Of a stretch of 64,000 bases of DNA, positions 1 through 64,000 are shown piece after piece. Both the position numbers and the translations under genes were made by a program. Where the stretch lies: positions 6,296-70,295 of the forward strand of contig JBDRAN010000002.1 in NCBI GenBank assembly GCA_043823745.1, written 5' to 3'. Position 1 is the stretch's first letter, and the number at the start of each line of letters is the position of its first letter. The stretch is from Candidatus Omnitrophota bacterium (GTDB lineage: Bacteria > Omnitrophota > Gorgyraeia > Duberdicusellales > 4484-171). Under the pieces are notes generated by a model that saw only the letters and a program-made list of their open reading frames with translations, had not been told where the DNA came from and made no database searches.

Positions 1-216
1 GTCACGAGTATCCCCTTCATGGAAAAATTTTTCTTAATTATGTTGATTGCAATTGTTTCTCAATTGGGCGATTTGTTCGAGTCGTTGATTAAAAGGGATT
101 GCGAGGTTAAGGATTCGGGGAGAATCCTACCTGGAATGGGCGGGGTGCTCGATGTTATCGATAGTATAATTTTTACCGCCCCAACATTTTATTTGTATAT
201 TACCATGATGCGTTGA
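1..216 (+). CDS. cdsA: Phosphatidate cytidylyltransferase, C-terminal fragment (5' end lies outside the window)
   Basis: C-terminal motif GDLFESLIKRDxxVKDSGRILPGMGGVLDVIDS is characteristic of CdsA. The frame is open from base 1. Confidence 0.8.
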   Translation, partial: VTSIPFMEKFFLIMLIAIVSQLGDLFESLIKRDCEVKDSGRILPGMGGVLDVIDSIIFTAPTFYLYITMMR

Positions 217-540
217 CACGCGAATTACCGCGAATTTTAAAGAGCGCGAATTTTCGCTAATGATACATGACGCGAATTATCACGAATTTATAAACGCTAA
301 TTTACGCTAATTGAAAACATAGAGTGGGATTCAGAAGATTCCGGAATTTACTATAAGCTTAACTATAGCGTAAACTTTGGTTCTTAAAAAATAGATATTA
401 GGCGACAGATTTACGAAAAAGCCAGGAACTAACGTTTTTATTCGCGTGGATTAAGTTTCTTACTCGCGGTCGTACGTCCCGCCTGCATTGCATTCGGCGG
501 GATCCCGCAGAGAACTTTAGTTCGCATGCGGGACGTTTTC

Positions 541-587
541 TAAATTAGCGGTAATTAGCGTCTTTAGATTAGCGGTAATTCGCGTTT
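541..587 (+). promoter_or_regulatory. Duplicated AAATTAGCGGTAATT(A/C)GCGT(C/T)TT motif ending at the dxr start codon
   Basis: TAAATTAGCGGTAATTAGCGTCTT TAGATTAGCGGTAATTCGCGTTT ATG. The same 24-mer precedes the purQ ATG (57224-57247). Confidence 0.5.
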
Positions 588-1739
588 ATGAAAAAGGTAA
601 CCATATTCGGGTCGACCGGTTCAGTTGGAAAAAGCGCGCTTGATGTAGTGCGTGCATCAGGTGGCGCGCTCGTCGTAGAAGGATTATGCGCGTGCCGTGA
701 TACCAAGACGCTCCAAGCCCAGGTTCGAGAGTTCTCACCGGCGCGGGTATGTGTTGTCGATGCGCAAGCTGCCCGGGCTTTTCGTGCCGGACGGCGCGGG
801 ATGACCGTGTTTCGTGGTCCGGAGGGATTAGATGAGTTCACCCTCGGCAAGACGGATATTGCCGTAATGGCAATTTCCGGTATCTCGGCGCTTAAGCCGC
901 TTCTTTCGGTGATTCCTCACGCGCGGCGCGTGGCGCTTGTCAATAAAGAATCGATTGTTGCCGGTGGTTCGTTTGTGTTTGCGCGGGCACGCACGTATGG
1001 AACGCAGATTTTGCCGGTTGACAGCGAAATCAATGCTCTTTTCCAGCTTTTTAAAGCGCACGAGCGCCGTGGTAATGGATTTGATCGGGTGTACATAACG
1101 GCATCAGGTGGCGCGCTTTTCGGGTATAGCCGCGCGCGATTACAAAAGGTAACCGTGCGGGATGTTTTGGCGCATCCGACCTGGAACATGGGCGCGCGCA
1201 TTACGGTGGATAGCGCGACGCTGGTCAATAAAGCGTTTGAGGTTATCGAAACGCATCATTTTTTCAATGTCGCATATTCCAAGATAGGAGTAGTGATTCA
1301 CCGGAAATCTCAAATCCATGCGTTCGTAGAATTTTGTGATAAAACAATAATGGCGTGCATGTATCCGGCGGATATGCGCATACCGATCGCGTTTGCGCTG
1401 CATTATCCTAGGCGCGTGGAAAACTCGCGCGGGATTGACTTTTCCCGATCGTTCTCGTTTGACTGTGCACCCTTCGCGCAAAAGCAGTTTCCGCTTTTTG
1501 AGCTTGTTATGAACGCGGCGGCGCGTCGTGATAATGGTTTGGTCGTATTGAATGCCGCCGATGAAAAAGCGATTGAATACTTCTTGAAGAATAAAATAGG
1601 TTTTACCGATATCGGCAAGGTTATGGAGTATATGGGTGAACACTATCCTTCGACGGCGCTGGCCGGTATCGAGGATGTTTTTTATTGGAATGAATGGGCG
1701 AGCAGTAAAGCAGAGGAGTACATACAAACGTTATGCTAA
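588..1739 (+). CDS. dxr: 1-deoxy-D-xylulose 5-phosphate reductoisomerase
   Basis: N-terminal ITIFGSTGSVGKSALDVV NADPH-binding motif. 383 aa. Conserved cdsA-dxr-rseP-ispG neighbourhood. Confidence 0.9.
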   Translation: MKKVTIFGSTGSVGKSALDVVRASGGALVVEGLCACRDTKTLQAQVREFSPARVCVVDAQAARAFRAGRRGMTVFRGPEGLDEFTLGKTDIAVMAISGISALKPLLSVIPHARRVALVNKESIVAGGSFVFARARTYGTQILPVDSEINALFQLFKAHERRGNGFDRVYITASGGALFGYSRARLQKVTVRDVLAHPTWNMGARITVDSATLVNKAFEVIETHHFFNVAYSKIGVVIHRKSQIHAFVEFCDKTIMACMYPADMRIPIAFALHYPRRVENSRGIDFSRSFSFDCAPFAQKQFPLFELVMNAAARRDNGLVVLNAADEKAIEYFLKNKIGFTDIGKVMEYMGEHYPSTALAGIEDVFYWNEWASSKAEEYIQTLC

Positions 1740-5147: not shown

Positions 5148-5236
5148 AAATGATTCCGGAGATTAGGTAAAGATTCCAGAGATTATGAAATCCCGTAATC
5201 TTTCTTTAATCTCTGTAATCTAATTAAAGGTTTTCA

Positions 5237-8397: not shown

Positions 8398-10308
8398 ATG
8401 AGAATTTATGAATTAGCAAAAGAATTAGGGATCGACAGCAAGGAGCTTCTTGAGAAACTTAAGAAGCTGAATTTCCCGGTTAAGAATCACATGTCGACAA
8501 TCGACGCGGAAACTGCTGAAGTGATTCGTCATGAAATTTCAAGTTTAGACAAGCAGGAAATCGAGGATAACGTTATTGAGGTTGATTTTCCTATCACCGT
8601 GAAGGATCTTTCGGTAAAACTCAATAAGAAACCGTCTGAGCTTTTAGGTGATTTGATCAAGGAAGGAAAATTTCTCAATATTAACCAGGGTTTAAGCGAA
8701 GACGCGGCTGCGGGCATAGCGTATCGTTACAAGGTTAATCTTAAGAAGAAACCGACAAGAGAAGAATCGATCCGTGGCGCCGAATCAAAAGACCTGCGCC
8801 CGCGCGCGCCCATTGTTACCATCATGGGGCATATCGATCACGGTAAAACCTCCTTGCTTGATTATATCCGAAAAAGTAAAATTGTCGAAAAGGAAACAGG
8901 GGGCATTACGCAGCATATTGGGGCGTACCAGGTGAGCCTACCGAAAGGTAAGATTACGTTTCTCGATACGCCCGGTCACGAAACGTTTACCGCGATGCGT
9001 TCGCGCGGCGCAACGGTTACCGACATCGTGGTGCTGGTGGTAGCTGCTGATGAAGGTATAAAACCGCAAACCGAAGAGGCACTTGATCACGCGAAAGCGG
9101 CTAAGGCGCCTATTATCGTTGCGATTAATAAGATCGACAGGGCAACCGCTAATCCTGACATGGTGAAGCAGCAGCTTTCTAAGCTTAATTTTTTAGCAGA
9201 AGACTGGGGCGGGAAGACCATTACTGCCGGGGTTTCGGCAAAGACCGGTAAAGGTGTTGACGAATTCCTTGATTTAATACTTCTGCAGGCCGAGATTATG
9301 GAGCTTAAAGCTGATTATGGCCGGGATGCCGTAGGTATTGTGGTTGAAGCCAAGCTTTCAAAAGGAAAGGGGCCGTTGGCTGCGATTCTGGTGCAGGAAG
9401 GGGTATTAAAAGTCGGCGACTGGTGCGTGTGTGGATTGTATGAAGGTAAGATCAAAGCAATGTACGATGACCTGATGTCTCCGATTACCGAGGCGCCACC
9501 TTCATTTCCCGCTGAAATACTTGGCCTAAATGGCGTGCCCAACCCCGGGGAACAACTTTTGGTTGTGCCTGATGAAAAGAGCGCTCGGGAGATTGTCAAG
9601 AAGCGTAGGGAAGAAGAAGACAAGAAGCGGCTTGTTGCACCGGCGCATTTTAAGCTTGAAGATCTATATAAAAAAGTAAAAGAGGAGCATGTCAAACAAT
9701 TCAAGATCATTCTTAAGGCCGACGTGGGCGGAACGCTTGAGGCGGTCGATGCCGCTCTTGCTAAGTTTTCAGGAGAAGAGGTTGAGCTCAATGTCGTGCA
9801 TAAAGGAGTGGGAGCCATTAATGTCTCTGACGTCCTGTTGGCCGAAGTAACCGATGCGGTGGTTGTCGGGTTTAAGGTGAGCGCTGATGCGCAGACGCGG
9901 GACCTGGCCAAACAAAAAGGCATTGAAACGCGGGTGTATCAGATCGTGTATGAACTTCTTGACGATATTAAAGCCGCGCTTGAAGGAATGCTTACGCCGA
10001 CGGTACGCAGAACTTTTGTCGGTAGAATACGAGTTAAAGAGGTATTTAAACTTTCGCGATCGGGTATCATCGCGGGGTGTATCGTGGAAAAGGGAAAAGC
10101 GATCAGGAATTCGCTTTGTCAGGTTACGCGCGGCGCTGAGGTTGTCCACGAGGGTAAAATTCAGTCTTTAAAGCGTTTTAAAGATGACGTGCGTGATGTA
10201 GCCGAAGGTGTTGAGTGCGGGGTCAGCGTGGGCTATAACGGGATTCTTGCCGGTGACGTTATTGATGTGTACAGCGAAGAAACCATAGCGCGGAAATTTA
10301 AGGAATAG
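8398..10308 (+). CDS. infB: Translation initiation factor IF-2 (short N-terminus)
   Basis: G-domain motifs [18 protein letters not shown] and NKID. About 636 aa. ATG 8398 is preferred (AAGGA about 12 nt upstream). A GTG start at 8389 is also possible. Confidence 0.9.
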
Positions 10309-10395
10309 AAGCGGAACCACGCGGAACTAAACGCTGAAAAAATTCGCGTGCGTCCGCGTAGTCATCCGCGGCTACCCGCTTCTATAAGTCTATAT

Positions 10396-11382: not shown

Positions 11383-11466
11383 ATGCGGATCGCCGCGGAA
11401 CGAAACGCGGAAATCCGCGGATAATCCGCGTAGTTATCCGCGCGTATCCGCTTCTAATATTCATAT

Positions 11467-12213: not shown

Positions 12214-12235
12214 ATCGTATAAAAAGATAAGCGCA

Positions 12236-12322
12236 GAGCGTATAGCGCAAAAAACTGTCCATAGTCCAGTGCGTAACGAAGTGGAGCCTCCTCAAAGAGG
12301 ACAGTCGATAGTCCACAGATTC
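12236..12322 (+). repeat. Dispersed about 85-bp intergenic element, copy 1 (scpA-ruvB spacer)
   Basis: Shares blocks AGCGTATAG, GTCCAGTGCGTA and GGAGCCTCCTCAAAGAGGACAGTC with 18866-18955. Confidence 0.7.
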
Positions 12323-12365
12323 AGACAGGAAAATAAAAAATTAAAAAGCGCTACACTAAGGTTAT

Positions 12366-13391
12366 ATGGAAGACGAGAGAGTTGTTGATTATTTAAAGGA
12401 AAACGAAGAAGAGAAGGTCATCAATTTATCCCTGCGCCCGCAGTCACTGGAGGAGTTCATCGGCCAGCGTGCGATCATATCAAGTCTTGATATCGCGATT
12501 GCCGCAGCAAAAAAGAGAAGCGAACCCCTTGAACATGTTCTTCTCTCTGGTCCCCCGGGACTGGGCAAGACGTCGCTTGCCTATTGTATTGCCCGCGATA
12601 TGGGCGCCAAGCTTACAGCCACCAGCGGTCCCGCTATTGAGCGCGCGGGAGATCTGGTCGGCATCCTTACAAACCTGGAAAAAGGAGATATTCTTTTTAT
12701 TGATGAAATCCATCGGCTCTCTAAGGTGGTGGAGGAATTTTTGTATCCGGCAATGGAAAACTTCCAGATCGATTTTATTATCGACAAAGGGCCATACGCC
12801 AAAAGTGTTAAGTTTAATTTGAAACCCTTTACGCTTATCGGCGCAACCACCCGTAAAGGGCTTTTAAGTGCGCCGCTGCGCGGACGTTTCGGTCTTTTCT
12901 TTGATTTTGATTTTTATACCTCCCAAGACCTTGCGTTTGTCGTTGAGCGTAGCGCGCAGCTGCTTGAAGTCGCCATTGACAATGAGAGCGCGCTTGAGAT
13001 TGCGGGGCGTTCTCGAGGGTCTCCGCGCTTAAGCAACCGGTTATTGAAGCGGGTACGGGATTACGCTCAGGTCATCGGAGAGGGGCATATTGATCTTGCG
13101 ACGAGCCGTAAGGCGTTAAGCCAGGTGCGTGTTGATAACGAGGGCCTTGATGATCTTGACCGTAAGTATTTAAAAGCTATGATTGAGCTGCACCAGGGAG
13201 GTCCGGTCGGTATCGAAGCCATCGCGGCAAGCCTTGGTGAAGACAAGGGAACTCTCGAAGACGTTGTTGAGCCCTACCTTTTAAAAAAGGGTTTTATCGT
13301 TCGTTCCCCCCGCGGGCGGATCGTTACCGAAATTGCCTACCAGCACCTCGATATCCCCTATACGAAGCAAACTCAGGGGAATCTCTTCTGA
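12366..13391 (+). CDS. ruvB: Holliday junction branch migration helicase RuvB
   Basis: AAA+ Walker A (GPPGLGKTSLA), sensor motifs and a C-terminal winged helix. 341 aa. Confidence 0.9.
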   Translation: MEDERVVDYLKENEEEKVINLSLRPQSLEEFIGQRAIISSLDIAIAAAKKRSEPLEHVLLSGPPGLGKTSLAYCIARDMGAKLTATSGPAIERAGDLVGILTNLEKGDILFIDEIHRLSKVVEEFLYPAMENFQIDFIIDKGPYAKSVKFNLKPFTLIGATTRKGLLSAPLRGRFGLFFDFDFYTSQDLAFVVERSAQLLEVAIDNESALEIAGRSRGSPRLSNRLLKRVRDYAQVIGEGHIDLATSRKALSQVRVDNEGLDDLDRKYLKAMIELHQGGPVGIEAIAASLGEDKGTLEDVVEPYLLKKGFIVRSPRGRIVTEIAYQHLDIPYTKQTQGNLF

Positions 13392-13465
13392 CCATTCTCT
13401 CTTCCGCAAAAGCTTTAATTTTCAATAAAGTATGATATAATCTGCCTCCTTAGCAGATATATACT

Positions 13466-13696
13466 ATGATGAGCACGTTGGGGAAAACGCTTATTTTGAT
13501 TGGTTCTTTGTTTATACTCGCGGGTCTCGTTGTGTTTATGGCATCCCGCGGTAAAGTGCCTTTTTTAGGGAAACTACCGGGAGATATTCTCGTTCAGAAA
13601 AAAAATTTCACCTTTTATTTTCCCTTAGCCACCTCTCTGGTGGTTAGTGTGGGAGTGAGCCTGATACTTTTTATTATTGCGCGTATGCGTAAGTAA
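13466..13696 (+). CDS. Small membrane protein, DUF2905 family
   Basis: 76 aa with two TM helices and the DUF2905-like GKLPGDIL motif. Confidence 0.55.
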   Translation: MMSTLGKTLILIGSLFILAGLVVFMASRGKVPFLGKLPGDILVQKKNFTFYFPLATSLVVSVGVSLILFIIARMRK

Positions 13697-13788
13697 TACA
13701 ACGTATCACGTAACACGTAACAGGGAACACGTCTTTTTGAAAACGTGATACGTGATACCGGTGGCCCGGTATATACTATTCTATTTTT

Positions 13789-14895: not shown

Positions 14896-14968
14896 CTGCT
14901 CCAAGCTACAAGTCCCAGGTCCCAAGCTTCAAAAAGCCTGTAGCTTGCAGCCTGTAGCCTGAAGCGAA

Positions 14969-15673: not shown

Positions 15674-15988
15674 ACATTATGGCCTGTCCGTTGTTCGGTG
15701 ACAGGAAATGTAGGAAGTTTTTCGATAGTATCCCGCTTCACAATATACGCCAAAATTTTCACGCTCACGAGGTGAGCAGGATAATTTTGGCGCGTTCAGC
15801 GGGATTAATTCTCCCGGTTTTTCAAGTAGGAAGATTTGAAAGATTGTAGGTCTTATTAAAGTATCCCGACAGCTGGACGCTTCGAAAATTTATGCAAAAT
15901 TTTCTCGCAGCTGTCGGTACAATTCGACTAAGCGTTTTTTCTGCGGCCGGGGCCTTTAAAAAACGCAAGTCTCATTGAGGAGGTTATT

Positions 15989-16336: not shown

Positions 16337-16413
16337 GTTAGCTCATAAGTTCTTAGGCTCATGAGATCATCAGCTTAGGAGCTTACGGGCTTATTAGCGT
16401 AAAGCTAATTTCT

Positions 16414-17329: not shown

Positions 17330-17499
17330 TTTAGCTCATTGTTCATGGTACATGAGGGATGAGGGACGACCGCTTCGCTAGGACGAAGGATGATCACGCA
17401 ATACGCACGACGCAATACGCAATACGTAGAAAAATACGCAATACCCGATGCTCAATACGCAATACAAAAAGAGAAAGTTATTTAAGATTTGCTGACAAA

Positions 17500-18868: not shown

Positions 18869-18955
18869 CGTATAGAGAAAAGTCCACAGTCGACAGTCCA
18901 GTGCGTAGCTTGCCCGAAGGGCGTGCGGAGCCTCCTCAAAAAGGACGGTCCACCG
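18866..18955 (+). repeat. Dispersed about 90-bp intergenic element, copy 2 (folD-oxidoreductase spacer)
   Basis: Same blocks as copy 1, with an extra GCCCGAAGGGC GNRA hairpin. Confidence 0.7.
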
Positions 18956-19003
18956 ATTTTCTAGAAGCTGATGGCTGAAGACTGATGCTGAAAGCTTAAA
19001 AGT

Positions 19004-21198: not shown

Positions 21199-21299
21199 CT
21201 ATCGTAAATGGTCACCAGGTCACAAAGTCACAAGATCACCCGTTTTTACTGGTGACGTGGTGACATGGTAACGTGGTGACTTTTAAGTTTGTACCAAAT

Positions 21300-22841: not shown

Positions 22842-22921
22842 GATAAGCTTTTTAGCTCTTAAGCTGATGAGCTCATGAGCTTAAAAACTTATGAGCTCAA
22901 TGGTTTCTCGTAAAATTTACT

Positions 22922-27682: not shown

Positions 27683-27816
27683 CCTAAAAAAAGGTATTCG
27701 GACTGGCCGGGCATGAATGTGCAGCCGTTACCCTGCAAAACCGACCAGGAATTTTGCAGAAAACACGATTTTGTGCTCCGTCGCACGTAGCGGCGCTTTT
27801 TTGCAGGTATGATTTT

Positions 27817-27910
27817 GGAAAAAAGCGAAAAACTCATAATTTCATGATATAATTCATAAATGGGTTTATCCGGCCTCATAAACGCAATAATCAAAACATT
27901 CATCATAAAA
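27817..27910 (+). repeat. Direct repeat copy A (about 94 bp): duplicate of the AAR-like gene's promoter plus first 17 codons
   Basis: About 93% identical to 30903-30997. Encodes MGLSGLINAIIKTFIIK then diverges to a stop after 29 aa. Confidence 0.85.
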
Positions 27911-28075
27911 CATTTAAGTCTGAAAAACCTCTCGTTAACATTAGCCGCTTAACGCATTTGCCTTTTTGTTCTAGCCCGACAAAATAGCATTCTTTTGGCT
28001 GATTTTTCTGATATAATTACGTAGGTATAATCCACTGCGGGGCATAATGCCTCTAAGCCACGGCATAAGCAAAAT

Positions 28076-35260: not shown

Positions 35261-35275
35261 AAAGGAGGATTAATT

Positions 35276-35662: not shown

Positions 35663-35664
35663 CG

Positions 35665-39054: not shown

Positions 39055-39126
39055 GCGATTAGCGTTTAGCGATTAGCGGATAGTGTAGATTCCACATCTT
39101 CCTACTACACGCTACACGTTATAGGT

Positions 39127-39323
39127 AACACCCGGTCAGATCGCACCCGGCGCTTAAAGCACCCAGCACTTAGAGGGATGGTGCTGGTGTCGCCCTTCTG
39201 GGCGAGAATTGCGCCGGTATGCACTTATCGGCTACACCCGACGCTTAAATGTATTGCGTCGGTATGCGCTTGCTGCGCAACACCCGGCGCTTATCGGAAT
39301 TGCGCCGGTATGCACTTTCTGTG
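39127..39323 (+). repeat. Tandem about 45-bp repeats (about 2.5 copies) plus related upstream units, upstream of the LysM lipoprotein gene
   Basis: ATTGCGCCGGTATGCACTTATCGGCTACACCCGACGCTTAAATGT / ATTGCGTCGGTATGCGCTTGCTGCGCAACACCCGGCGCTTATCGGA / ATTGCGCCGGTATGCACTTTCTGTGC. Confidence 0.75.
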
Positions 39324-39335
39324 CAAGGAGGTTTC

Positions 39336-39845
39336 ATGAGTAAATATCTTGTCTTATTTGGCTTTGTTTTTTTGAGCGGCTGTTTAGCGAGAACATATAC
39401 GCTTACCAAGCCCCGCGTTGACACCGAGATCAAGGGTAACCGTGGATATCTCTCAGGGGCTCCCGCGCAGGAGACAGTCGCGCCTTCGAGGCTTGGCGAT
39501 ACGCGTAAAACGTCGGTATTGGAAATAGAGCTTGGTCCGCATCCCCGATCGTCAGCATCTAAAACTCTCGTAACCGCACCCCGGAGAAAAGCTGTTCAGA
39601 AAGAGGATTCATCGCAAGGCATTGCGTCCCAGGAGACTGAGGAGATTGTCGATGAGATCATAGAGGAGACAACCTATCGCGAATATATTGTTGAAAAAGG
39701 AGATACCTTGCAGAAAATTTCACAGAAATTTTATGGTACAACGAAGAAGTGGCAGATGCTTTACCAAGAAAATAAAGATATTTTGAAAGGCCCGGATAAG
39801 GTCTATCCGGGGATCAAGATCAGGATACCGCAGGAGAAGCAGTAG
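39336..39845 (+). CDS. LysM-domain lipoprotein
   Basis: Signal peptide with lipobox LSGC. C-terminal LysM (YIVEKGDTLQKISQKFYG...IKIRIP). Start at ATG 39336 with AAGGAGG upstream. Confidence 0.75.
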   Translation: MSKYLVLFGFVFLSGCLARTYTLTKPRVDTEIKGNRGYLSGAPAQETVAPSRLGDTRKTSVLEIELGPHPRSSASKTLVTAPRRKAVQKEDSSQGIASQETEEIVDEIIEETTYREYIVEKGDTLQKISQKFYGTTKKWQMLYQENKDILKGPDKVYPGIKIRIPQEKQ

Positions 39846-39942
39846 AGAGAAGGACATGGGATGTTGGACGTTCGCTCGCACGGCGCTCGTTGCGCCAGGC
39901 TCGTTGGGACGTGGGACGTAAGACGTAGGACGATCAGAAAAC

Positions 39943-42282: not shown

Positions 42283-42735
42283 ATGAGCATTGCCCTTCTC
42301 AACAAACAAAAAACCCGTCTTAACGCGATTCGGTTGCGCGCACATCTTGCAAAGGCTTCCCGGTTTCTTGGGATATCAAAACGGGACGTTTCATTTGTTT
42401 TTTGCGATGATGTGTTTATCCGGCGCCTACACGCAATATACTTCAACGATAACAGTGCCACCGATGTCATTTCGTTTTGTTTTGCCGAAAAGCGTACTGA
42501 TCGATACCTGGGAGAAGTGATTGTTTCTGTCTCGTGCGCCCGCGCGTGCGCCCACCGGTACGGTATGACCTTTGAGCAAGAACTTATGTTGTATTGTATC
42601 CACGGTATGTTGCATCTTATCGGTTACGACGATCGTACGCGTGCAGGCCGCGTGCGCATGGAGCGCATGCAGCAGAGAATTCTTAAGAAAGTATTGAAGG
42701 CTTCAAGGTCACCAGCCACCAGTAAAAACGGGTGA
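42283..42735 (+). CDS. ybeY: rRNA maturation endoribonuclease YbeY
   Basis: HGMLHLIGYDD zinc motif. Start moved to ATG 42283 (about 150 aa) to avoid a 50-nt overlap. Confidence 0.8.
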   Translation: MSIALLNKQKTRLNAIRLRAHLAKASRFLGISKRDVSFVFCDDVFIRRLHAIYFNDNSATDVISFCFAEKRTDRYLGEVIVSVSCARACAHRYGMTFEQELMLYCIHGMLHLIGYDDRTRAGRVRMERMQQRILKKVLKASRSPATSKNG

Positions 42736-42748
42736 CCTTGTCCCTCCA

Positions 42749-42840
42749 GGGAAGGCTTCGCACCCCCTGACGGGAGGCTTCGCACCCCCCTTCGGGGAGG
42801 CTTTGCACCCCCCTTGACGGGAGGCTTCGCGCTAACTTTG
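42749..42840 (+). repeat. Tandem array of four 22-25-bp hairpin units (GGGAGGCTTCGCACCCCCCTTC-like)
   Basis: Four contiguous units. Each carries a CCCC-TTCG/TGAC-GGGG mini-hairpin. Confidence 0.8.
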
Positions 42841-42857
42841 TGACGTGGTGACTTTTT

Positions 42858-43574: not shown

Positions 43575-43716
43575 GAAAGCGATGAGCGTAAAAGCACGGT
43601 TCTATGGTGTAGGTTGTAGGGTGAAGGCTCTAGGGTTTTTAACCTAGAACCTTGAACCTGGAGCCTGAGGCTTGAAGTAAGGTGTTATCCGGTATTTATG
43701 GTATAATTACTTTTAT

Positions 43717-44225: not shown

Positions 44226-44669
44226 GTGATGATTTACGAAAACAGAAAAGTGGATGCGATTGAAGAAAAAGCAAAGAAAACCTTAGGCCAGACATTTTTT
44301 CCCGATGATGTTGACCCGGGAATTTTGCAGACGATCGCCTATGAGTATCCAAAGCGCGTAATTGACGTTGAATTGACAACCTCGGAGTTTACCTGCATCT
44401 GCCCTTATTCGGGCCTTCCTGATTTTGCCACCATCATTATTCGCTATGTTCCTCGCGCGCGGCTTATTGAGCTAAAATCCTTAAAGTATTATTTCTACGC
44501 GTTTCGTAATGTAAAAGTGTATAACGAGCATGCGGTCAACAAAATCCTTGAGGATTTAGTGCGCGTGGTTAAGCCCCGTTCAATGACCGTGATTGGTGAG
44601 TTTACGGTTCGCGGAGGAGCGACGAATAAAGTTACGGCGCAGTATAAAACACGAGCGTATAGCGTTTAG
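44226..44669 (+). CDS. queF: NADPH-dependent 7-cyano-7-deazaguanine reductase (unimodular type)
   Basis: Catalytic CICPYSGLPDF motif and a T-fold. 147 aa. Confidence 0.85.
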   Translation: MMIYENRKVDAIEEKAKKTLGQTFFPDDVDPGILQTIAYEYPKRVIDVELTTSEFTCICPYSGLPDFATIIIRYVPRARLIELKSLKYYFYAFRNVKVYNEHAVNKILEDLVRVVKPRSMTVIGEFTVRGGATNKVTAQYKTRAYSV

Positions 44670-44807
44670 CGTGTAGCGTATAGTAAAGAAGCGATTAGCG
44701 TGTTTAGTGGGGATAATGAAGAAGTGACAAAATTACTAAAAAACTATATTACTAAACTTTCTTTAAACTAATGATTTCATATCTGGATTTTACTAATCGC
44801 TATACGG

Positions 44808-44828
44808 TGCGAAGCCTCCCCGAAGGGG
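44808..44828 (-). repeat. Inverted single copy of the 42749-array unit
   Basis: GCGAAGCCTCCCCGAAGGGGG is the reverse complement of CCCCCTTCGGGGAGGCTTCGC, with one mismatch to unit 3. Confidence 0.75.
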
Positions 44829-44870
44829 GCTAGAAGCTCTGTGCAATACGCAATACGTTAAATATTTGTT

Positions 44871-46634
44871 ATGAAGAACCAAGACGTGGCCGGTATATTT
44901 AGGGATGTAGCAAATATCTTAGAGCTTAAAGGGGATAATCCTTTTCGCATCCGCGCATACGCGCGGGCTGCGTTAACCATTGAAAGCTTGACGCAGGATC
45001 TTGATGCGCTTATCCACGATGATATGCTTCAATCTCTTCCGGGTATCGGTGTTGATCTTGCGGCAAAAATTAAAGAAATCGTTGCGACGGGAAAACTTTC
45101 CTATTATGAGAGATTGCAGAAAGAAATACCGCCGGGTTTAGTCCAGATGCTTGCGATACCCAGTCTTGGCCCAAAGACCGTAAAAAGTATTTATGACGCA
45201 TTGGGTATCGATACGGTTCGCAAGCTCGAAGCTGCGGCTCGTGCCGGAAAACTTAGGGTTGTTGAGGGTATAAAAGAGAAAACACAGGAGAATATTATTA
45301 AGGGTATCGCGATCCTTAAACAGGGGAGAGAGCGTGTACCTTTGTCGTTTGCGCTTGGTCTTGCCAATGAGTTTGCCGTGCGGCTTAATTCAATTAAAGA
45401 GGTTGATGCACTTGAAGTTGCCGGATCCCTGCGGCGCAGGAAAGATACAATTAAAGATATTGATATTTTGCTTGTTTCAAAAAAGCCCTCCGTTGTTATG
45501 AATACGTTTGTCGCATTGCCGCTGGTGAAGCAGGTTCTTGCGCACGGAGAAACAAAATCATCGGTTATAGCCGGAGAGCACTCTATGCAGGTTGACGTGC
45601 GGGTAGTGTCCAGTGAAAACTTTGGTTCGGCATTGATGTATTTTACCGGCTCAAAAGAGTTTAATATTACGATGCGACAGCTTGCCATCACATACGGCTG
45701 TAAGATAAACGAGTACGGAGTATTTAGGGTAAAAGGGAAAAAAGAGCAGTGGGTGGCTGGTAAAACTGAAGAAGATATCTTTTCTTTTTTTGATATGGGA
45801 TACATTGCTCCTGAATTGCGGGAAGATAGGGGGGAAGTGCTCGCGGCGCGAGCCCATAAACTTCCCCTGCTTATCGAGCTTGACGATATAAAAGGCGATT
45901 TTCATGTGCATTCAAAATATAGCGATGGTACTGCCGAAATTAGCGATATCGCCGCAGTCGCTGCGCGTCGTGGTTATAAATATATCGGTATTTGTGATCA
46001 TTCTATGAGTCTTAAGATCGCCGGAGGGCTCTCGGTGCGGCAGGTACACAAAAAAATAGCCGAGATTCGCGCGCTTAATAGAACAAGCGTGACACGGCTT
46101 TTAGCCGGCACGGAAGTGGATATTGATTCTAGAGGCGTGCTTGATTATCCGGAAAGCGTATTGCGCGAGTTTGATCTGGTAGTGGCGGCAATCCATAGCG
46201 GCTTTAAGCAATCAAAAGCGCAGATCACCCGGCGTCTGGTCGCGGCATGCAAGAATAAAGCGGTTAACATTATCGCGCATCCCACGGGTAAGTTGTGGGG
46301 CATGCGCGAGCCGTATGATTTCGATCTCCAAGAGGTTCTGCGCGCCGCAGCGGACAATAACGTGGCTATGGAAATAAATTGCCATCCCCAGCGTATCGAT
46401 TTAAATGATATAGCGGCGATGCGCGCGAAGAAGTTTGGCGTAAAAATTTCTCTGGGTACTGATGCCCATACATTGGATCAGCTTTCCAGTATCGAGCTTG
46501 GAGTAACTACTGCGCGCCGGGCGTGGCTTACGAAGCATGATGTTATTAACTCGATGGGGTACGAGGTGCTTACGCAGTGGTTAAAAAAGAGGCTAAAGAA
46601 CGCAGATGAAGCGAATGTATCGAGAAGTGGTTAG
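44871..46634 (+). CDS. polX: Family X DNA polymerase with C-terminal PHP phosphoesterase domain
   Basis: N-terminal helix-hairpin-helix region, Pol-beta-like nucleotidyltransferase (GSLRRRKDTIKDIDIL), and PHP (HVHSKYSDG...ICDHS). 587 aa. Confidence 0.8.
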   Translation: MKNQDVAGIFRDVANILELKGDNPFRIRAYARAALTIESLTQDLDALIHDDMLQSLPGIGVDLAAKIKEIVATGKLSYYERLQKEIPPGLVQMLAIPSLGPKTVKSIYDALGIDTVRKLEAAARAGKLRVVEGIKEKTQENIIKGIAILKQGRERVPLSFALGLANEFAVRLNSIKEVDALEVAGSLRRRKDTIKDIDILLVSKKPSVVMNTFVALPLVKQVLAHGETKSSVIAGEHSMQVDVRVVSSENFGSALMYFTGSKEFNITMRQLAITYGCKINEYGVFRVKGKKEQWVAGKTEEDIFSFFDMGYIAPELREDRGEVLAARAHKLPLLIELDDIKGDFHVHSKYSDGTAEISDIAAVAARRGYKYIGICDHSMSLKIAGGLSVRQVHKKIAEIRALNRTSVTRLLAGTEVDIDSRGVLDYPESVLREFDLVVAAIHSGFKQSKAQITRRLVAACKNKAVNIIAHPTGKLWGMREPYDFDLQEVLRAAADNNVAMEINCHPQRIDLNDIAAMRAKKFGVKISLGTDAHTLDQLSSIELGVTTARRAWLTKHDVINSMGYEVLTQWLKKRLKNADEANVSRSG

Positions 46635-47625: not shown

Positions 47626-47924
47626 AGAAGCTAGGAAGCTCGTGGCTTACAGGGAAGATGGCAGATTGCAGATGACAGATGGCAGATAGAGGGACGAGGG
47701 ATGAGAGACGCAGATTGCCGCGAAATCAACGCAGATTTACGCAGATAAAAAAGAGATTTTGTATCCTCGTTACTTACAATCTTTGCTTTAATTTTAAAAC
47801 TTGACCTATTTTTGTGGAGGGATAGTATAATCATTAATGAGTGATTATATGAGGCTAAAATTTAGGTAAATTTATAGGGTAACTCTTAAAGGGATTGCCT
47901 TTTTTGACCAAGGATACGAGAAAA

Positions 47925-48500
47925 ATGGACGAAGGAAAATTATTTGTAAATCTTCACAATATTCTTAAAGGATATAAAAACAAATGTAGATTTTTAACCG
48001 AGCTAAAAACTTCATTATTTACTAAAAAAACATCTTATCAGCTTGATTTTGATATTATAATCATTCAGTTGCAAAACAGGGTAGAAGACATTTTTGACCG
48101 TATTCTAAGAACTTATACAAGACCTAAGCAAAAAGAGGAATATTTATATAACGATGAGATAATGAAAGATACTGCAGCAAAATTTACCCCCGAGGAGGTT
48201 AGGAACTTGATTATTTTTAATCTTGGTTTTAGTGAGAAAAAGAATTTGATTTTCAAGCTTTTTAAGGTATCTAAATCGACGAAAACGATAATTGATAAAC
48301 TTAATGAAATGAGAAATGCAATTGCCCATAGATATAGCGAAGACGATAAAAGATTTATTTATAAAGAAAAGAACGTTTTACATGATCCAAACACACTTAT
48401 TAATTTTTTTAGAGACAATTTCGAGGGTATTATTGAGATTCTTGAAATCGAAACTAAGCTACTAGATGCCATAGATAAAGCCGAAGGTGAACTTGGTTGA
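47925..48500 (+). CDS. Hypothetical protein with an HEPN-type Rx4H motif (possible RNase, toxin or Abi)
   Basis: C-terminal MRNAIAHRY fits the HEPN R-x(4-6)-H motif. Predicted all-alpha. AT-rich island. The TTG start at 47895 is also possible. Confidence 0.4.
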   Translation: MDEGKLFVNLHNILKGYKNKCRFLTELKTSLFTKKTSYQLDFDIIIIQLQNRVEDIFDRILRTYTRPKQKEEYLYNDEIMKDTAAKFTPEEVRNLIIFNLGFSEKKNLIFKLFKVSKSTKTIIDKLNEMRNAIAHRYSEDDKRFIYKEKNVLHDPNTLINFFRDNFEGIIEILEIETKLLDAIDKAEGELG

Positions 48501-49042
48501 AATTCAATGTGAGCCTTGAGCAGAGAAGAATGAACAAAAAACAATCAATCATAATATTGGTGTTATTATTTATTCCGATAATTAGTTGTTTTGCCGCCAG
48601 AGACTATCTCATAGACAAAGGACAGAAGCCTGACGAGTCAACTTTCCATGAATACAAGATTGACTTGGATGGCGACAAGAAACCAGAGTTAATCAAAGTT
48701 ATGTATGGCCCTGGTGTATCTGATAAATACCTTGAGATAGAAGTCTATAAGGCAGGCAAACTCATATCTCGTCTCAAGGGCAAGTTCGGTATCCAGTCCA
48801 ACTACAAGATAGAAGATATAGATAAGGACGGCAAAAAAGAAATCATCATCTGGAGCGGCATCTGGGATCCGCGCCTGTCTGGAGAGGATGGCGTGACGGA
48901 AGCAACGTACGAAGGTCACAGCAGTCCGCACAGATATATCGTAGCTACCTATAAACTCATAAGGGACGATTATTACCTTTGGAAGATATACACTACCAAG
49001 AAGAAGTACGAGCCGTTTTGTGAAGAGCAGCCAAAAGAGTAA
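48497..49042 (+). CDS. Hypothetical lipoprotein or secreted protein
   Basis: Signal peptide IIILVLLFIPIISC. 4-nt overlap with the previous gene. No motif recognised. Confidence 0.45.
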   Translation: MKFNVSLEQRRMNKKQSIIILVLLFIPIISCFAARDYLIDKGQKPDESTFHEYKIDLDGDKKPELIKVMYGPGVSDKYLEIEVYKAGKLISRLKGKFGIQSNYKIEDIDKDGKKEIIIWSGIWDPRLSGEDGVTEATYEGHSSPHRYIVATYKLIRDDYYLWKIYTTKKKYEPFCEEQPKE

Positions 49043-49076
49043 GGAAGCAAGAACGTTGAAACAAAAGGAGTGAAAA

Positions 49077-49565
49077 ATGAAAAAACTAATCTTGTTTTTA
49101 GTATTCGCTTTTCTATCCTTGTCCAGCACCGCTTTTGCTGATATTAAGACTGAAGCAGATATGCTCAAGAAAGATTTGATTAGTTTCCATAACAAAATGG
49201 CAGCTTATCAAAGAGAAGAATCCGAGCCTTCCAATACTATGTATAATAAGTTATATACAGATCAAGCGGGCGAACTATTTGTTTTTACGAATATAAGCCG
49301 AGCATATTTAAACTATGCACGTTTTCTGCTCGATGAAATTAAATGGTTAAAACTAGACTCAGATAACGAATTAGTTAGGGGATATTTAAAAAATAGCTTA
49401 TCTAATTTTAATAAAGAAGGGGAATTTTATGTTAAATATTTAGCTTACCATATAGAATTTGCAAAGAATCTAGAAATGACTAAAAAATTACAGATTTTGA
49501 AAGAAGATATAGCCGCGCTTCACACTAAGATTAAAAAATTTAGCGATAATATTTCTACAAAATAA
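49077..49565 (+). CDS. Hypothetical secreted alpha-helical protein
   Basis: Signal peptide MKKLILFLVFAFLSLSSTAFA. SD AAGGAG upstream. Confidence 0.5.
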   Translation: MKKLILFLVFAFLSLSSTAFADIKTEADMLKKDLISFHNKMAAYQREESEPSNTMYNKLYTDQAGELFVFTNISRAYLNYARFLLDEIKWLKLDSDNELVRGYLKNSLSNFNKEGEFYVKYLAYHIEFAKNLEMTKKLQILKEDIAALHTKIKKFSDNISTK

Positions 49566-49959: not shown

Positions 49960-50114
49960 AATCTTTAGCCGCAAGGCGAGGATTTTTTTTGTTTATGGGT
50001 ATTATAAAAACAAAGTCAGTATTCGGATAGGTTTGAAATGCTCTGGGTAGCTGGTAGAAAGGCAAAAGTTTTAGCATGATGCGAAGGCTAAATGGCGATG
50101 GGTAGGAACGAAGA

Positions 50115-50864: not shown

Positions 50865-51020
50865 CCATGGTAGCTCATGGCTCATGGCTGATAGCTCATA
50901 GTGAAGAGAAAAATACTAAAGATTGTGAGCCGTGAGTTATGCGTTTCTTTCAGGGCTATGAGCAATGAGCTATGAACTATGAGCTAGATTATACTCACTA
51001 CTCAATACTTAAACATTACA

Positions 51021-52617: not shown

Positions 52618-52637
52618 AATATTGAGAATTTTTGTGA

Positions 52638-52672
52638 GCCCCTCGTGACGTAGCGCACGAGGGGCTTTTTTT
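52638..52672 (+). terminator. Rho-independent terminator after the repeat-protein gene
   Basis: GCCCCTCGTG-acgtagcg-CACGAGGGGC, a 10-bp GC-rich stem, followed by TTTTTTT. Confidence 0.7.
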
Positions 52673-57078: not shown

Positions 57079-57223
57079 ACGCTAATTTTCGCAAATCCGG
57101 AAGAACGCTAATGTACGCTCATCAAGAAGAGAAGCTCGAATATGAAGGTATTCAATCCATGACAATTATAGTTTTTTCATTAGTGTCATTTGCGTTTTCA
57201 AAATTCGCGGTCATTGGCGTTCT

Positions 57224-57247
57224 AAATTAGCGGTAATTCGCGTTTAT
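57224..57247 (+). promoter_or_regulatory. Second copy of the AAATTAGCGGTAATTCGCGTTTAT motif, ending at the purQ start codon
   Basis: CTAAATTAGCGGTAATTCGCGTTTAT ATG. No SD. Confidence 0.5.
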
Positions 57248-61695: not shown

Positions 61696-61811
61696 AGCGC
61701 ACCGCGCATCTGTCTGTAGCTGACAGCCCTACAGGCTTTCAGCCTGTTGGGTAGATAGGGAAGCAGGTTGGTGTGTATGTGTTTGGGCTATGCAAAAAAG
61801 AGGAGGGGAGT

Positions 61812-62687
61812 ATGAGTTTATTTTATTTACTCGGTATTGCTATTGTTGTTATTTTTTTTTCAGGCATCAGGATTGTGAGGCCAACGCACCGGGCGCTTAT
61901 CGAGCGCTTAGGTAAATACAACCGTTTCGCTAATGCCGGTTTTCATTGGATTGTTCCGGTTATAGAGCATATTTATTTAGTTAACGTCACTGAACAAATG
62001 GTGGATGCTGAGCCGCAGGAGATTATTACTAATGATAATTTGAATGCCAAGGTTGACGCGCAGGTTTATTTTAAAGTAAAAGCTGATGAAGCGAGCGTCA
62101 AAAGCTGCCAGTATAACGTAAATAATTATCAGTGGCAGATTGTAAATTTGGCGCGTACAACCCTAAGGAATATTATCGGCACTTTGACGTTAAAGTCAGC
62201 GAACAGTGAGAGAGGTAAGATCAATGCGGAGTTACACAGGACACTATGCGATGAGACTGCAAGTTGGGGTTTAGAGATCGTTCGCACAGAGTTAAAAGAG
62301 ATTGATCCTCCTAAGGATGTTCAAGAGACGATGAATAAAGTAGTTAAGGCAGAAAATGAAAAGATTGCTGCGGTTGATTACGCTACTGCTACTGAAACTG
62401 TTGCTGACGGACAAAAGAGAGCAGAAATAAAAAAAGCAGAAGGCATCAAGCAGGCGAATATTCTATCGGCAGAAGGTGAGGCAGCGGCAATACGCATGGT
62501 CAATGAGGCTGCGGAAAAATATTTTGTGGGTAATGCCCAACTGTTGCGGCGGCTTGAGATGGTAGAGAAATCTCTTCAGCATAATGCGAAAATAGTAGTT
62601 CCTTTGAACTCTGACTTAGTAAACGTTATCGGTGAAATGGCGGGCGTTCTGCCGATAGTAAAGAAAGAGGAACGGAAGGATAAGTAA
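61812..62687 (+). CDS. SPFH/Band 7 (stomatin/prohibitin-like) membrane protein
   Basis: N-terminal TM helix and SPFH core (GIRIVRPTHRALIERLGKY...). Start at ATG 61812 with AGAGGAGG upstream. Confidence 0.75.
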   Translation: MSLFYLLGIAIVVIFFSGIRIVRPTHRALIERLGKYNRFANAGFHWIVPVIEHIYLVNVTEQMVDAEPQEIITNDNLNAKVDAQVYFKVKADEASVKSCQYNVNNYQWQIVNLARTTLRNIIGTLTLKSANSERGKINAELHRTLCDETASWGLEIVRTELKEIDPPKDVQETMNKVVKAENEKIAAVDYATATETVADGQKRAEIKKAEGIKQANILSAEGEAAAIRMVNEAAEKYFVGNAQLLRRLEMVEKSLQHNAKIVVPLNSDLVNVIGEMAGVLPIVKKEERKDK

Positions 62688-62902
62688 GGTCTAATGAGAC
62701 TTACGCTTTTTTTAAGCTGTAAGCGCTAAAAAAAGTGTGTAGTCGCGTTAGTTCCATTTTTGCCTCAATTGATATTTTCGCAATTTCAGGAAATTGCGAG
62801 GGAAACATATCGGGTGCAAAAATGGGATCAATTCGCGCAGGTGACTTATGAGCACTCACCTGTGTTCGCTCCATAAGTCACGCGCTCATTGAAGGAGGTT
62901 AT

Positions 62903-63154
62903 ATGGAGTATTCACCGTATGCTTTTATAGGGGCATATATGGGCATTATGGCATTCATGGCAGCGTCAATAACGATGGCGGCCGCAGCGATTGCGATAGC
63001 GTTTCTTTCAGCGAACCGCGAGAGGATCAATCCCGTCATTCTTTGGATTCTTAGGATTATTTGTTGGATAGCATTGTTGATCGGGGCAGCGTATACATTC
63101 TCAAGTTTGTACAACGTTGTCGCTCAACTCATTCTTAATTTTAAAAAAGCCTAA
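62903..63154 (+). CDS. Small two-TM membrane protein (hypothetical)
   Basis: 83 aa, hydrophobic. Strong SD GAAGGAGG upstream. Confidence 0.5.
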   Translation: MEYSPYAFIGAYMGIMAFMAASITMAAAAIAIAFLSANRERINPVILWILRIICWIALLIGAAYTFSSLYNVVAQLILNFKKA

Positions 63155-64000
63155 ATGAAAGTTTTAGTTATTGGTTCAGGCGGCAGGGAGCATGCGATTG
63201 TTTGGAAAATCGCTCAATCAAAGTTACAGCCTACAATTTTTTGCGCTCCCGGCAACGGCGGTATCGCTGATATCGCGACCTGCATTGATATCAAGGCGGA
63301 TGATGTCAGGGCCTTGTGTGATTTTGCTAAAGTTGAGCATATTGACTTGACTGTGGTGGGGCCGGAAGCGCCGCTTGCGCTTGGTATTGTTGATGAGTTT
63401 ACAAAGCATTCGTGTGCGATATTTGGGCCGAGTAAAGCCGCGGCAGCGCTTGAAGGCAGTAAGGTTTTCGCAAAAGAGTTTATGGCACGCTGGAAGGTGT
63501 CCACCGCTGATTTTAAGGTTTTTACTGATGCCGTCGCGGCGCACGAATACATCGCCCGGCGCGGTGTTCCCTGTGTAGTTAAGGCAGATGGTCTTGCGGC
63601 GGGAAAAGGCGTTGTGGTTGCCGAGAATCTTGACGAGGCGCATGAGGCCGTGGCCGCTATGATGGAGAAAAAAACGTTTGGGATAGCAGGCTCAAAAGTT
63701 ATCATTGAGGATTGTCTGGTGGGCGAAGAAGCTTCGATTATTGCGATTGTGGACGCGCACACGGTCATGATGCTTGCTTCAAGCCAGGACCATAAGCGTG
63801 TCTTTGACGATGATAAAGGCCCTAATACCGGCGGTATGGGTGCGTATTCTCCGGCGCCGATGGTAAGCGAAGAGGTGCTGGGGTGTATACACGCTACCGT
63901 GATCGAACCAATCATCCGGGGATTACGCCAGGACGGCGTTGTGTATCGCGGTGTTCTGTACGCAGGCATTATGCTTACCGCGGCCGGCCCGCAGGTCCTT
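63155..64000 (+). CDS. purD: Phosphoribosylamine-glycine ligase, N-terminal 282 aa (runs off the window end)
   Basis: MKVLVIGSGGREHAIVWKIAQS start and an ATP-grasp region (VVKADGLAAGKGV). No stop in the window, so it is absent from the ORF track. The antisense track ORFs 63214-63969 are its shadows. Confidence 0.85.
   Translation, partial: MKVLVIGSGGREHAIVWKIAQSKLQPTIFCAPGNGGIADIATCIDIKADDVRALCDFAKVEHIDLTVVGPEAPLALGIVDEFTKHSCAIFGPSKAAAALEGSKVFAKEFMARWKVSTADFKVFTDAVAAHEYIARRGVPCVVKADGLAAGKGVVVAENLDEAHEAVAAMMEKKTFGIAGSKVIIEDCLVGEEASIIAIVDAHTVMMLASSQDHKRVFDDDKGPNTGGMGAYSPAPMVSEEVLGCIHATVIEPIIRGLRQDGVVYRGVLYAGIMLTAAGPQVL

Follow-up and report, generated by a model that had tools for sequence, protein, structure and literature searches.

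The first intergenic heptamer repeats, the cyanobacterial STRR, were recognised around 1990, and we know of no accepted origin or role for such repeats. Here we describe short 'word' repeats in the intergenic spacers of a 64,000-nucleotide (nt) stretch of a Candidatus Omnitrophota genome (assembly GCA_043823745.1, contig JBDRAN010000002.1, positions 6,296 to 70,295), which in its full length is referred to as the window (W). The spacers carry small elements that are hairpin-forming, periodic, family-structured, dispersed, conserved, replaceable and dispensable. They may best be described as REP-like hairpin families, dispersed among the spacers and built internally from heptamer repeats, that make up a population of small non-coding elements specific to this lineage; to this reading we assign a probability of about 0.5. 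What distinguishes the Omnitrophota repeats is that many families are present within one genome. As synteny is strict and relatives with and without the elements are available, the old heptamer-repeat question becomes tractable: a junction-by-junction comparison makes it testable whether such repeats are neutral slippage products, whether they are mobile and whether they are selected.

The closest known match is the convergent GGGAATC heptamer arrays of Xanthomonas. X. campestris and X. axonopodis have 70–75 convergent array pairs per genome that are capable of forming stem-loops; about four units are preferred, the same junctions are occupied in related species with variation in length and sequence, and the arrays are unrelated to gene function (Rehm et al., 2015; PMC4692102). 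The window elements resemble these in being intergenic heptamers with convergent arms and about four units per array. However, Xanthomonas uses essentially one G-rich quadruplex-forming word, whereas the window contains at least 15 unrelated words that are mostly not G-rich: the units lack G runs (ACGTAAC, AGCCTGT, TAGCTCA, GGTCACAA and others), the sole G-rich one being GGGACGT at 39906–39932. The window also differs in having octamers, evidence of whole-element copies at new sites and strong sequence conservation.

Three other systems are relevant for comparison. As summarised in PMC4679880, the long simple sequence repeats with units of 5–11 nt (Mrazek et al., 2007), which include the STRR heptamers of cyanobacteria and TAACTGA of Beggiatoaceae, are dominated by heptamers, biased towards intergenic DNA, scattered in phylogeny and subject to indels in 7 nt steps between close strains. 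The TAACTGA repeats immediately precede start codons, and of 170 sets only one contains an indirect repeat (PMC4679880). The window arrays have the same short tandem units, mostly heptamers, and the same strong intergenic bias, but the long simple sequence repeats are mostly direct and use one or a few words per genome (STRR1–3, GGGAATC, TAACTGA), while the window combines a large vocabulary with mirrored arrays as the commonest arrangement. REP/REPIN elements lie outside genes as inverted doublets, form hairpins when present as mRNA or single-stranded DNA, fall into several families, occur in either orientation, are more conserved than expected and lie in 3' untranslated regions and intercistronic spacers (Bertels and Rainey, 2011; PMC3116915). 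Their unit is an imperfect palindrome of 20–40 nt that is present in hundreds of near-identical copies and is linked to a RAYT gene (PMC3116915), and in Escherichia coli REP325 acts as a stabiliser and partial terminator (bioRxiv 10.64898/2026.03.23.713779). The window elements are likewise conserved extragenic inverted hairpins of several families in either orientation, but they differ in structure and copy number, with arms made of tandem units and no high-copy 16-mers within the window. Finally, the (A)n–(T)n palindromes of Fusarium mitochondria are intergenic, differ in presence or absence between close species and are suspected of mobility (PMC7218506). They too arrange a tandem tract and its complement as a palindrome in intergenic DNA, but they are mononucleotide and mitochondrial and have neither multi-base words nor a diversity of families. 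In kind, the window elements lie between REP/REPIN and the intergenic heptamer repeats, such as Xanthomonas GGGAATC and cyanobacterial STRR.

The intergenic DNA of the window amounts to 5.2 kb, for which expectations were derived from a third-order Markov model. An earlier note, made from the letters alone, had staked its description of the spacer words on their enrichment over such a background, and the words are enriched in spacers by a factor of 3–100: CGCGAATT, for example, occurs nine times against 0.29 expected, CGCTAAT 13 times against 0.69, CGCAATACG and GATTAGCG four times each against 0.11 and 0.17, respectively, ATGAGC 17 times against 2.7 and GTCAC 14 times against 4.5. Word density is 2–90 times higher in spacers than in genes. 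Short-period self-similarity in segments of 80 nt is much higher in intergenic than in coding DNA (Mann–Whitney p = 2e-19). The high-scoring segments have a period of 7 (36 segments) or 8 (14 segments) and no other, and the 99th percentile of coding DNA is reached by 27% of the intergenic and 3% of the coding segments. There are 18 arrays (period 6–11, at least 2.8 copies, score of at least 30), 12 with period 7 and four with period 8, and Tandem Repeats Finder (TRF) reports arrays of period 7 or 8 at nearly all sites cited in the earlier note. All of the examples that it gave are present at or near where it had placed them, and its description of direct and inverted word arrays is borne out apart from 62830–62880, which is a plain inverted repeat and not a word array.

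At least 15 different consensus units, in a dozen or more word families, are found within the 64 kb. Among the 34 spacers of at least 50 nt, strong 7–8 nt periodicity is observed in 11, a significant hairpin in 12 and either of these in 17. By eye, word repeats are visible in about 20 of the spacers; this count is higher because units of 9–11 or 23–26 nt escape the periodicity statistic. An automatic array count that needed an exact mirrored 5-mer was too strict for the degenerate units but brought similar architecture to light in unrelated contigs. The sharing of words between distant spacers, also claimed beforehand, is equally evident: 70 12-mers are common to at least two spacers, where 1.5 would be expected and 200 shuffles gave eight at most. 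The repeats are not an assembly artefact, since over 2.7 kb, three hairpins included, the sequence agrees completely with that of an independent Logan assembly of run SRR10598175.

A typical element begins 0–6 nt past a stop codon (one includes it) and ends 2–17 nt before the next start codon, within long strings of same-strand housekeeping genes. The arms consist of about 4–5 tandem units of 7 or 8 nt (sometimes 9–11 nt), the second arm being the reverse complement of the first, and the centre between them is A/T-rich, often with a run of five A or T. For the TRF arrays as a whole the copy number is mostly 2.7–5.8, with one array of 10.3. The guaB–guaA spacer (21199–21299) can serve as an example and reads GGTCACCA GGTCACAA AGTCACAA GATCACCC, cgtttttact, GGTGACGT GGTGACAT GGTAACGT GGTGACTT. 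Mirrored arrays are the commonest arrangement, beside several direct-only arrays, and arrays of the same unit lie on opposite strands of one spacer at 13701–13772, 14897–14966, 21200–21282, 43598–43666 and 50871–50986. Some words are made of palindromes (GAGCTC+AT, CGCG+AATT, GGTNACC), so that an array is nearly its own reverse complement. In four larger spacers (218–587, 42705–42852, 44654–44857 and 57079–57246) outer word arms surround another element.

As a consequence of the periodic arms, a hairpin can pair in several registers. At 14896–14968 there are 21 matches in the best register and 17–18 at ±7, compared with a median of six at other shifts; sliding the arms against each other by a unit or two leaves the complementarity almost as good, and such alternative pairings are confirmed. 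Variants of the unit are not mirrored between the arms. Of the 23 spacers tested for folding, 13 have z ≤ −3.3 (range −3.3 to −6.1), mostly as one long imperfect hairpin that spans the spacer, while none of 150 coding segments reaches z ≤ −3. Raw folding energy shows no difference between intergenic and coding DNA because the spacers are lower in GC, and z-scores were used instead. Several arrays are direct only and do not fold.

The window was compared with relatives and with background sequences, for which L-numbers are used as designations of contigs or genomes. Throughout Omnitrophota the genes from T2SSE to hisS keep the same order. The same word-hairpin style is found in L005 (GCA_028713415.1; TrmD 74% identical), L007 (72%) and L094, and a few word hairpins are present in L089, L090 and L092 (GCA_028692655.1). 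Elements are absent from L006 (a complete genome of 1.27 Mb, CP070684.1), L088, L091, L093 and the more distant L001–L003, where the spacers are plain and 1–30 nt long. Since streamlined relatives have plain spacers, the word-hairpin style is lineage-specific within the phylum and dispensable. Much of what separates streamlined from non-streamlined Omnitrophota in spacer length is due to the elements.

Copies of a family sit at unrelated spacers and in either orientation, in the genome of the window as well as in its relatives. Within the window, the element at 16337–16413 is an inverted copy of the guaA–dnaE element (22842–22921), and 21230–21254 recurs inverted, loop included, at 42717–42741. 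The elements upstream of dxr (218–587) and purQ (57079–57247) share 21 nt adjoining the start codon, those at 12214 and 18869 have a common core and those at 42736 and 44809 have a common 22 nt motif. Across genomes, 16337–16413 matches the reverse complement of the guaA–dnaE element of L005 (11356–11410) at 52 of 55 positions, irregular units included, although the sites are non-orthologous. A 31 nt piece of this family (26/31) is found in yet another spacer of L094 (1320–1350), and 18966–18999 of the window matches the right arm of the L094 tgt–trmD hairpin (557–590). The GATTACAG, CTACAAG and CAGAT elements also recur at different junctions across genomes. With the orthologous spacer excluded, the spacers of the window and L005 share 23 12-mers against 1.3 expected; vocabulary sharing was uninformative at k = 8 owing to the high background and was redone at k = 10–12.

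A single gene junction, in turn, carries different families in different genomes. The tgt–trmD junction has five fillings: the window has CTACAAG there and L005 has GATTACAG, while L094 shows CAGCTAT/GCTGAAA, L007 a word-free hairpin and L089 CACAGAT. The alignment of the L089 guaA–dnaE element as a homologue of the AAGCTCNT family was not convincing, and nothing resembling the AAGCTCNT element was found in the viral contigs scanned.

Conservation was assessed in two pairs of genomes. L090 and L092 are 83.5% identical over 5.8 kb, with 59–67% identity at third codon positions and 57–77% in plain spacers. Their infB–trpS CAGAT word hairpin is identical at 106 of its 109 nt and is the most conserved 100 nt stretch in the 5.8 kb, the flanking coding DNA being 86–87% identical; about 40 differences would be expected at the third-position rate and three are seen. 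Loops and unpaired parts are unchanged as well. The only change, TTG to CCA, makes unit 2 into CACAGAT like its neighbours and looks like a templated conversion. Between the window and L005, where third positions are 34–48% identical and thus near saturation, the 80 nt guaA–dnaE spacer (L005 11353–11432) is 81% identical without gaps and its 61 nt core is 90% identical. Because the elements are conserved far above third positions, the resident copies are constrained or refreshed, although the sites are replaced over longer times. Dispersal at the level of families, together with conservation well above that of synonymous sites, argues against pure junk.

Further mirrored arrays were observed outside the phylum. 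When metagenomes were scanned with an alignment of TrmD, the only matches were distant TrmD genes (46–56% identity), and these contigs were used as background. The same mirrored heptamer/octamer arrays with 4–5 units per arm occur in unrelated background contigs (GC 49–59%), namely in L046 (127–340, 3349–3461 and 4956–4993), L042 (2663–2732), L021 (464–583), L030 (1810–1874) and L066 (5442–5476 and 9959–9992). L046 belongs to Terriglobia (Acidobacteriota), as judged from an 84% TrmD match. This architecture is therefore found more widely than one would gather from the literature, and the word 'unusual', which the earlier note used for such intergenic DNA, calls for qualification, convergent heptamer arrays being known from Xanthomonas (PMC4692102) and the same architecture being present in the Terriglobia contig.

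If the elements are indeed dispersed REP-like hairpin families with heptamer-repeat arms, their units would be gained, lost and homogenised as replication slips and switches template inside the hairpin, steps of seven being the recognised signature of repeats of this sort. Entire elements may reach new spacers by means of a Y1/HUH-type single-strand transposase that recognises hairpins, or by recombination. Such a transposase would be the obvious candidate, yet only the relative L090 shows a gene of this kind, with different flanks. The elements are expected to be transcribed within polycistronic mRNAs as long stem-loops without a U tract, which, in the manner of REP in E. coli, could lend stability to the upstream cistron, lessen read-through and uncouple neighbouring cistrons. 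In the infB–trpS element, 10302–10314 (the infB stop-codon region) pairs with 10377–10391, just upstream of the trpS start at 10396, and in the tgt–trmD element the outer stem likewise connects the region of the stop codon with the nucleotides just ahead of the following start codon. These outer stems could enforce or gate translational coupling, or they may be incidental. As for the REP-like system proposed in the earlier note, the behaviour is that of such a system (families, unrelated sites, either orientation, conservation); membership in REP/RAYT does not follow from it, as the window has no transposase, none of its oligomers of at least 12 nt recurs in three or more spacers and the arms consist of tandem units instead of REP palindromes.

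A number of observations weigh against dispersed families acting as RNA hairpins. No 12-, 14- or 16-mer occurs in three or more window spacers and sharing is pairwise only, so that the copy number per family looks low at the scale of the window. The shared vocabulary is significant only between the window and L005 or L094, with no excess for L007, L089 and L090. No transposase or other mobility gene was detected in the 64 kb by Pfam and NCBIfam scans, and the target-site duplication that is a mark of MITEs is not visible at the paralogous copies 16337/22842 or 21230/42717. Covariation gives no support, as orthologous copies are too few and the single change breaks predicted pairs, and conservation that reaches into the loops exceeds the need of a simple stability function. 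The arrays at 17396–17465, 39852–39932 and 47656–47746 are direct only and do not fold. The preference for the sense strand that an RNA function would predict is weak and is confounded by the positive GC skew: there are 91 G–U pairs in the sense and 65 in the antisense orientation, and the sense strand gives the more stable fold for 16 hairpins, against eight.

A stronger version of this reading can be put forward tentatively as a possibility that we would not yet bet on. The elements would then be a new REPIN-like class of mobile or copy-exchanging intercistronic hairpins with tandem heptamer/octamer arms and many coexisting families, strongly constrained as multi-register RNA stem-loops by which the host adjusts how strongly cistrons are expressed relative to one another within housekeeping operons that are otherwise fused. 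Were this so, heptamer repeats (STRR, GGGAATC, TAACTGA) and REP/REPIN would be two faces of one phenomenon, which would extend past Proteobacteria and Cyanobacteria to Omnitrophota and, through contig L046, to Acidobacteriota.

The elements might instead be a pure by-product of mutation, in which arrays grow by slippage in 7–8 nt steps, the mirror arm arises by template switching and the result is neutral filler without dispersal or function. We consider this unlikely, even though periods of 7–8 are just those of the heptamer-dominated long simple sequence repeats, which have been attributed to slippage (Mrazek et al., 2007, as summarised in PMC4679880; PMC4692102). The pairing of the arms in several registers, the unit variants that are not mirrored between arms, the filling of the entire space from stop to start codon and the ability of streamlined relatives to do without elements all agree with such an origin, as does the sole orthologous change, which converts a unit to the form of its neighbours. 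What speaks against it is that the 109 nt element of L090 and L092 has three differences instead of about 40, with unchanged loops and unpaired parts, and that copies at unrelated sites and in other genomes share an irregular order of units and the loop sequence, of which convergence cannot be the source. Pervasive slippage, the other option offered in the earlier note, is thus plausible for the internal 7–8 nt periodicity and for the three-base orthologous change but is not the whole story.

It is very doubtful that these are genuine REP/REPIN elements that owe their mobility to a RAYT from another part of the genome. The dispersed families of extragenic inverted-arm hairpins in both orientations are what would be expected, but the arms are tandem 7–8 nt units and not REP palindromes of 20–40 nt, the families are many and low-copy instead of few and high-copy, and no RAYT is found among the scanned open reading frames (ORFs) of the window. 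The guaA–dnaE spacer of L090 does contain a gene for 206 amino acids (13124–13744) with a match to Y1_Tnp (IS200-like, PF01797; 28.6 bits), inserted between guaA and dnaE. The two perfect palindromes upstream of this gene (ggaaattttctaagaaaatttcc and agatttttcgaagaaaaatct) are, however, unlike the word hairpins. A 13-mer common to the flank of the L090 gene and position 15790 of the window is at chance level.

We likewise give little credence to the idea that the hairpins divide transcription units from one another as factor-independent terminators or attenuators lacking a U tract. Stable hairpins that begin just after stop codons would suit this role, and clusters of U-tract-less hairpins have been proposed as terminators (PMC8355165). 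No T run follows the word-hairpin stems, however, and terminator-like consensus sites are not enriched (19 against 22 expected), with a single word hairpin flagged and its tail weak. Textbook terminators with a GC stem and T run are found at likely operon ends (49966–49990 and 52636–52672), each followed by promoter-like sequence, which indicates that the organism uses the canonical type. In relatives, the genes on either side of the word hairpins abut or overlap, which suggests co-transcription and places the hairpins inside likely operons, and copies occur in both orientations.

An interpretation of the arrays as DNA-binding sites (operators, iterons or nucleoid-protein sites) with incidental hairpin potential seems equally improbable: it would require as many proteins as there are words, at least 15 in 64 kb, the downstream genes are functionally unrelated housekeeping genes and other words replace the sites in relatives. 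Nevertheless, it would account for the high conservation of primary sequence, unpaired parts included, for the direct-only arrays and for the many near-palindromic words (GAGCTC, CGCG+AATT, GGTNACC) that resemble dimer operators. CRISPR, tRNA/tmRNA and riboswitch readings can be dismissed, as the window has no tRNA or tmRNA genes, no Rfam 15 match at gathering scores or at E ≤ 0.1 and no unique 30 nt spacers between repeats.

None of the elements is assigned to a strand. Upstream of dxr, a left block of CGCGAATT and ACGCTAAT words (218–312), consisting of a 26 nt super-unit repeated three times and 1.9 copies of ACGCTAATTT, is mirrored by a complementary right block of ATTAGCGG and AATTCGCG words (541–587), and a GC-rich hairpin (471–535) is nested between them. 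The last 21 nt before the dxr start codon recur before purQ (57226–57246). The purL–purQ spacer holds the paralogue, a hairpin over its whole length (57079–57246, z −3.3) with ACGCTAAT on the left and ATTAGCGG and AATTCGCG on the right. Between the T2SSE ATPase and class II tRNA synthetase genes, a hairpin of two GATTCCRGAGATTA and 2–3 TAATCTCTGTAATC units (5152–5221, z −3.8) is similar to L005 3468–3558, which sits at a different site. The infB–trpS hairpin (10302–10391, z −5.1) has three GCGGAAC and three TCCGCG units, and its outer stem extends over the stop codon of infB and the 15 nt that precede the start codon of trpS. It is followed by the trpS–scpA hairpin of CCGCGGAA-type words (CGCGGATAATC, 3.4 copies; 11385–11451, z −5.3) and by the scpA–ruvB element (12214–12365), in which GTCCAYAGTC words surround a GGAGCCTCCTCAAAGAGGAC core and which is a paralogue of 18882–18953.

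The DUF2905–tgt spacer (13701–13772) contains 4.6 copies of ACGTAAC (13701–13732), 2.3 copies of the complement ACGTGAT and a small hairpin. The tgt–trmD spacer is filled by a hairpin of CTMCAAG (4.7 copies) and AGCCTGT (4.4 copies, 14935–14965) that starts 1 nt after the stop codon and ends 2 nt before the start codon (14897–14966, z −3.4; registers 0, ±7 and ±14). In rplS–rnhB there are about nine octamers (TNAGCTCA; 16340–16409, z −6.1), the inverted copy of the guaA–dnaE element. UPF0102–FTCD_C (17330–17499) has 10.3 direct copies of ACGCAAT (17396–17465), and the same 16-mer is found at 44843–44857. The folD–oxidoreductase spacer (18869–19003) has GTCCAC words, making it a paralogue of the 12255 element, and GCTGAWG heptamers (18964–18999) that match L094 557–590. 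In guaB–guaA (21200–21282) four GGTCACNN units face four GGTGACNT units; TRF reports 3.8 copies of GGTCACAA at 21210–21239 and 3.9 copies of TGGTGACG at 21250–21280, and the centre with its loop recurs inverted at 42717–42741. The guaA–dnaE element is a self-complementary array of seven AAGCTCNT octamers (22844–22906, z −4.2), in which TRF finds 5.8 copies of AGCTCATG (22854–22899).

Downstream of aspS, 3.6 copies of AGCGATT (39054–39078) and GTGTAG are mirrored by CTACACGCTACACG (39054–39118). At 39852–39932 direct heptamers of the GGACGT type flank a GC-rich core and do not form a hairpin (z 0.3). The nested element at 42705–42852 contains a GGTCACC hairpin across the ybeY stop codon (42705–42739), a 23 nt tandem repeat of 3.4 copies (42753–42830) and the 13-mer GTGACGTGGTGAC (42840–42852), which is identical to 21252–21264. 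Downstream of recO lies a hairpin of 5.6 GGTTSTA and five AACCTNG units (43598–43666, z −3.7). A composite hairpin of 200 nt lies between queF and the PolX gene (44654–44857): AGCGTAT in 4.3 copies (44654–44683) and GCGATTAGCG are mirrored by CTAATCGCTATACGG, inside are 3.4 copies of AAATTACT, and the GCGAAGCCTCCCCGAAGGGGGC motif and two copies of GCAATAC are also present. The GCGAAGCCTCCCCGAAGGGGGC motif, GC-rich and 22–23 nt long, forms a small hairpin with a GAAG or UUCG loop; it is tandem (3.4 copies) at 42753–42830, occurs singly and inverted at 44809–44830 and is conserved in L005 (1653–1678). Directly downstream of the composite hairpin, the largest found, is a family X DNA polymerase gene with pol beta thumb and PHP domains (44871–46634), from which no link is implied. 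Downstream of apbE (47656–47746) AGATGGC (4.6 copies, 47656–47687), GAGGGAC (3.1 copies) and CGCAGAT (three copies) are all direct. Upstream of panB (50871–50986, z −5.4) 4.4 copies of TAGCTCA (50871–50901) and a mirror of 4.6 copies of GCTATGA (50955–50986) enclose a 54 nt core. A short hairpin between purM and the SPFH gene (61714–61754), CTGTAGC..CTACAGGC / GCCTGT, is a weak member (z −2.2).

The window has a GC content of about 47%, a positive GC skew throughout and nearly all genes on the + strand. Its genes, named by Pfam and NCBIfam scans of the ORFs, are a housekeeping set comprising dxr, rseP, ispG, the T2SSE ATPase, the class II tRNA synthetase, rimP, nusA, infB, trpS, scpA, ruvB, DUF2905, tgt, trmD, rplS, rnhB, UPF0102, FTCD_C, folD, the oxidoreductase, guaB, guaA, dnaE, HU, hisS, aspS, phoH, ybeY, recO, queF, PolX, apbE, panB, purB, purL, purQ, purF and purM; guaB, dnaE, folD and 35665–36000 (beside a response regulator) were named through synteny or had no match in the scans. 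The TrmD protein is 100% identical to NCBI MFH1875302.1, which comes from a Candidatus Omnitrophota MAG, whereas no recorded protein matches the Tgt of the window exactly. The repeat elements mislead mechanical ORF calling, and three gene starts are over-extended in the window. In the mechanical list trpS (10348), FTCD_C (17359) and guaA (21273) begin inside repeat elements, while comparison with relatives places the actual starts at 10396, 17500 and 21300; three of the stretches cited earlier fall within listed ORFs because of these upstream alternative start codons. Stop codons in all three frames are present in 14 of 17 hairpin spacers against 10.6 expected, which was judged trivial because stop-free spacers would be taken as ORF extensions. 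A 46 nt tandem repeat of 2.6 copies (39206–39326) runs from a spacer into the annotated start of a LysM-domain ORF (39249–39845), which makes the actual start of this gene uncertain.

Two long spacers, upstream of rplS (15674–15988) and of an 83-amino-acid ORF (62688–62902), contain several long near-perfect inverted repeats without word structure and without an Rfam match (z −4.7 and −7.8, respectively). A stretch of low GC (47895–49565, about 34%) consists of three consecutive ORFs of 201, 181 and 162 amino acids with no Pfam match. A low-GC island (32–40% against about 47%) lies between dnaE and the HU gene (27683–36000) and encodes an NAD_binding_4 reductase, two 7TM histidine kinases, a response regulator and a methyltransferase, with spacers that lack word arrays. 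In the relatives L006 and L091, dnaE, HU and hisS are directly joined without this island, which was probably acquired horizontally. Upstream of two of its genes (27817–27853 and 30903–30939) lies an identical 37 nt segment, ggaaaaaagcgaaaaactcataatttcatgatataat, with a −10-like TATAAT at its end.

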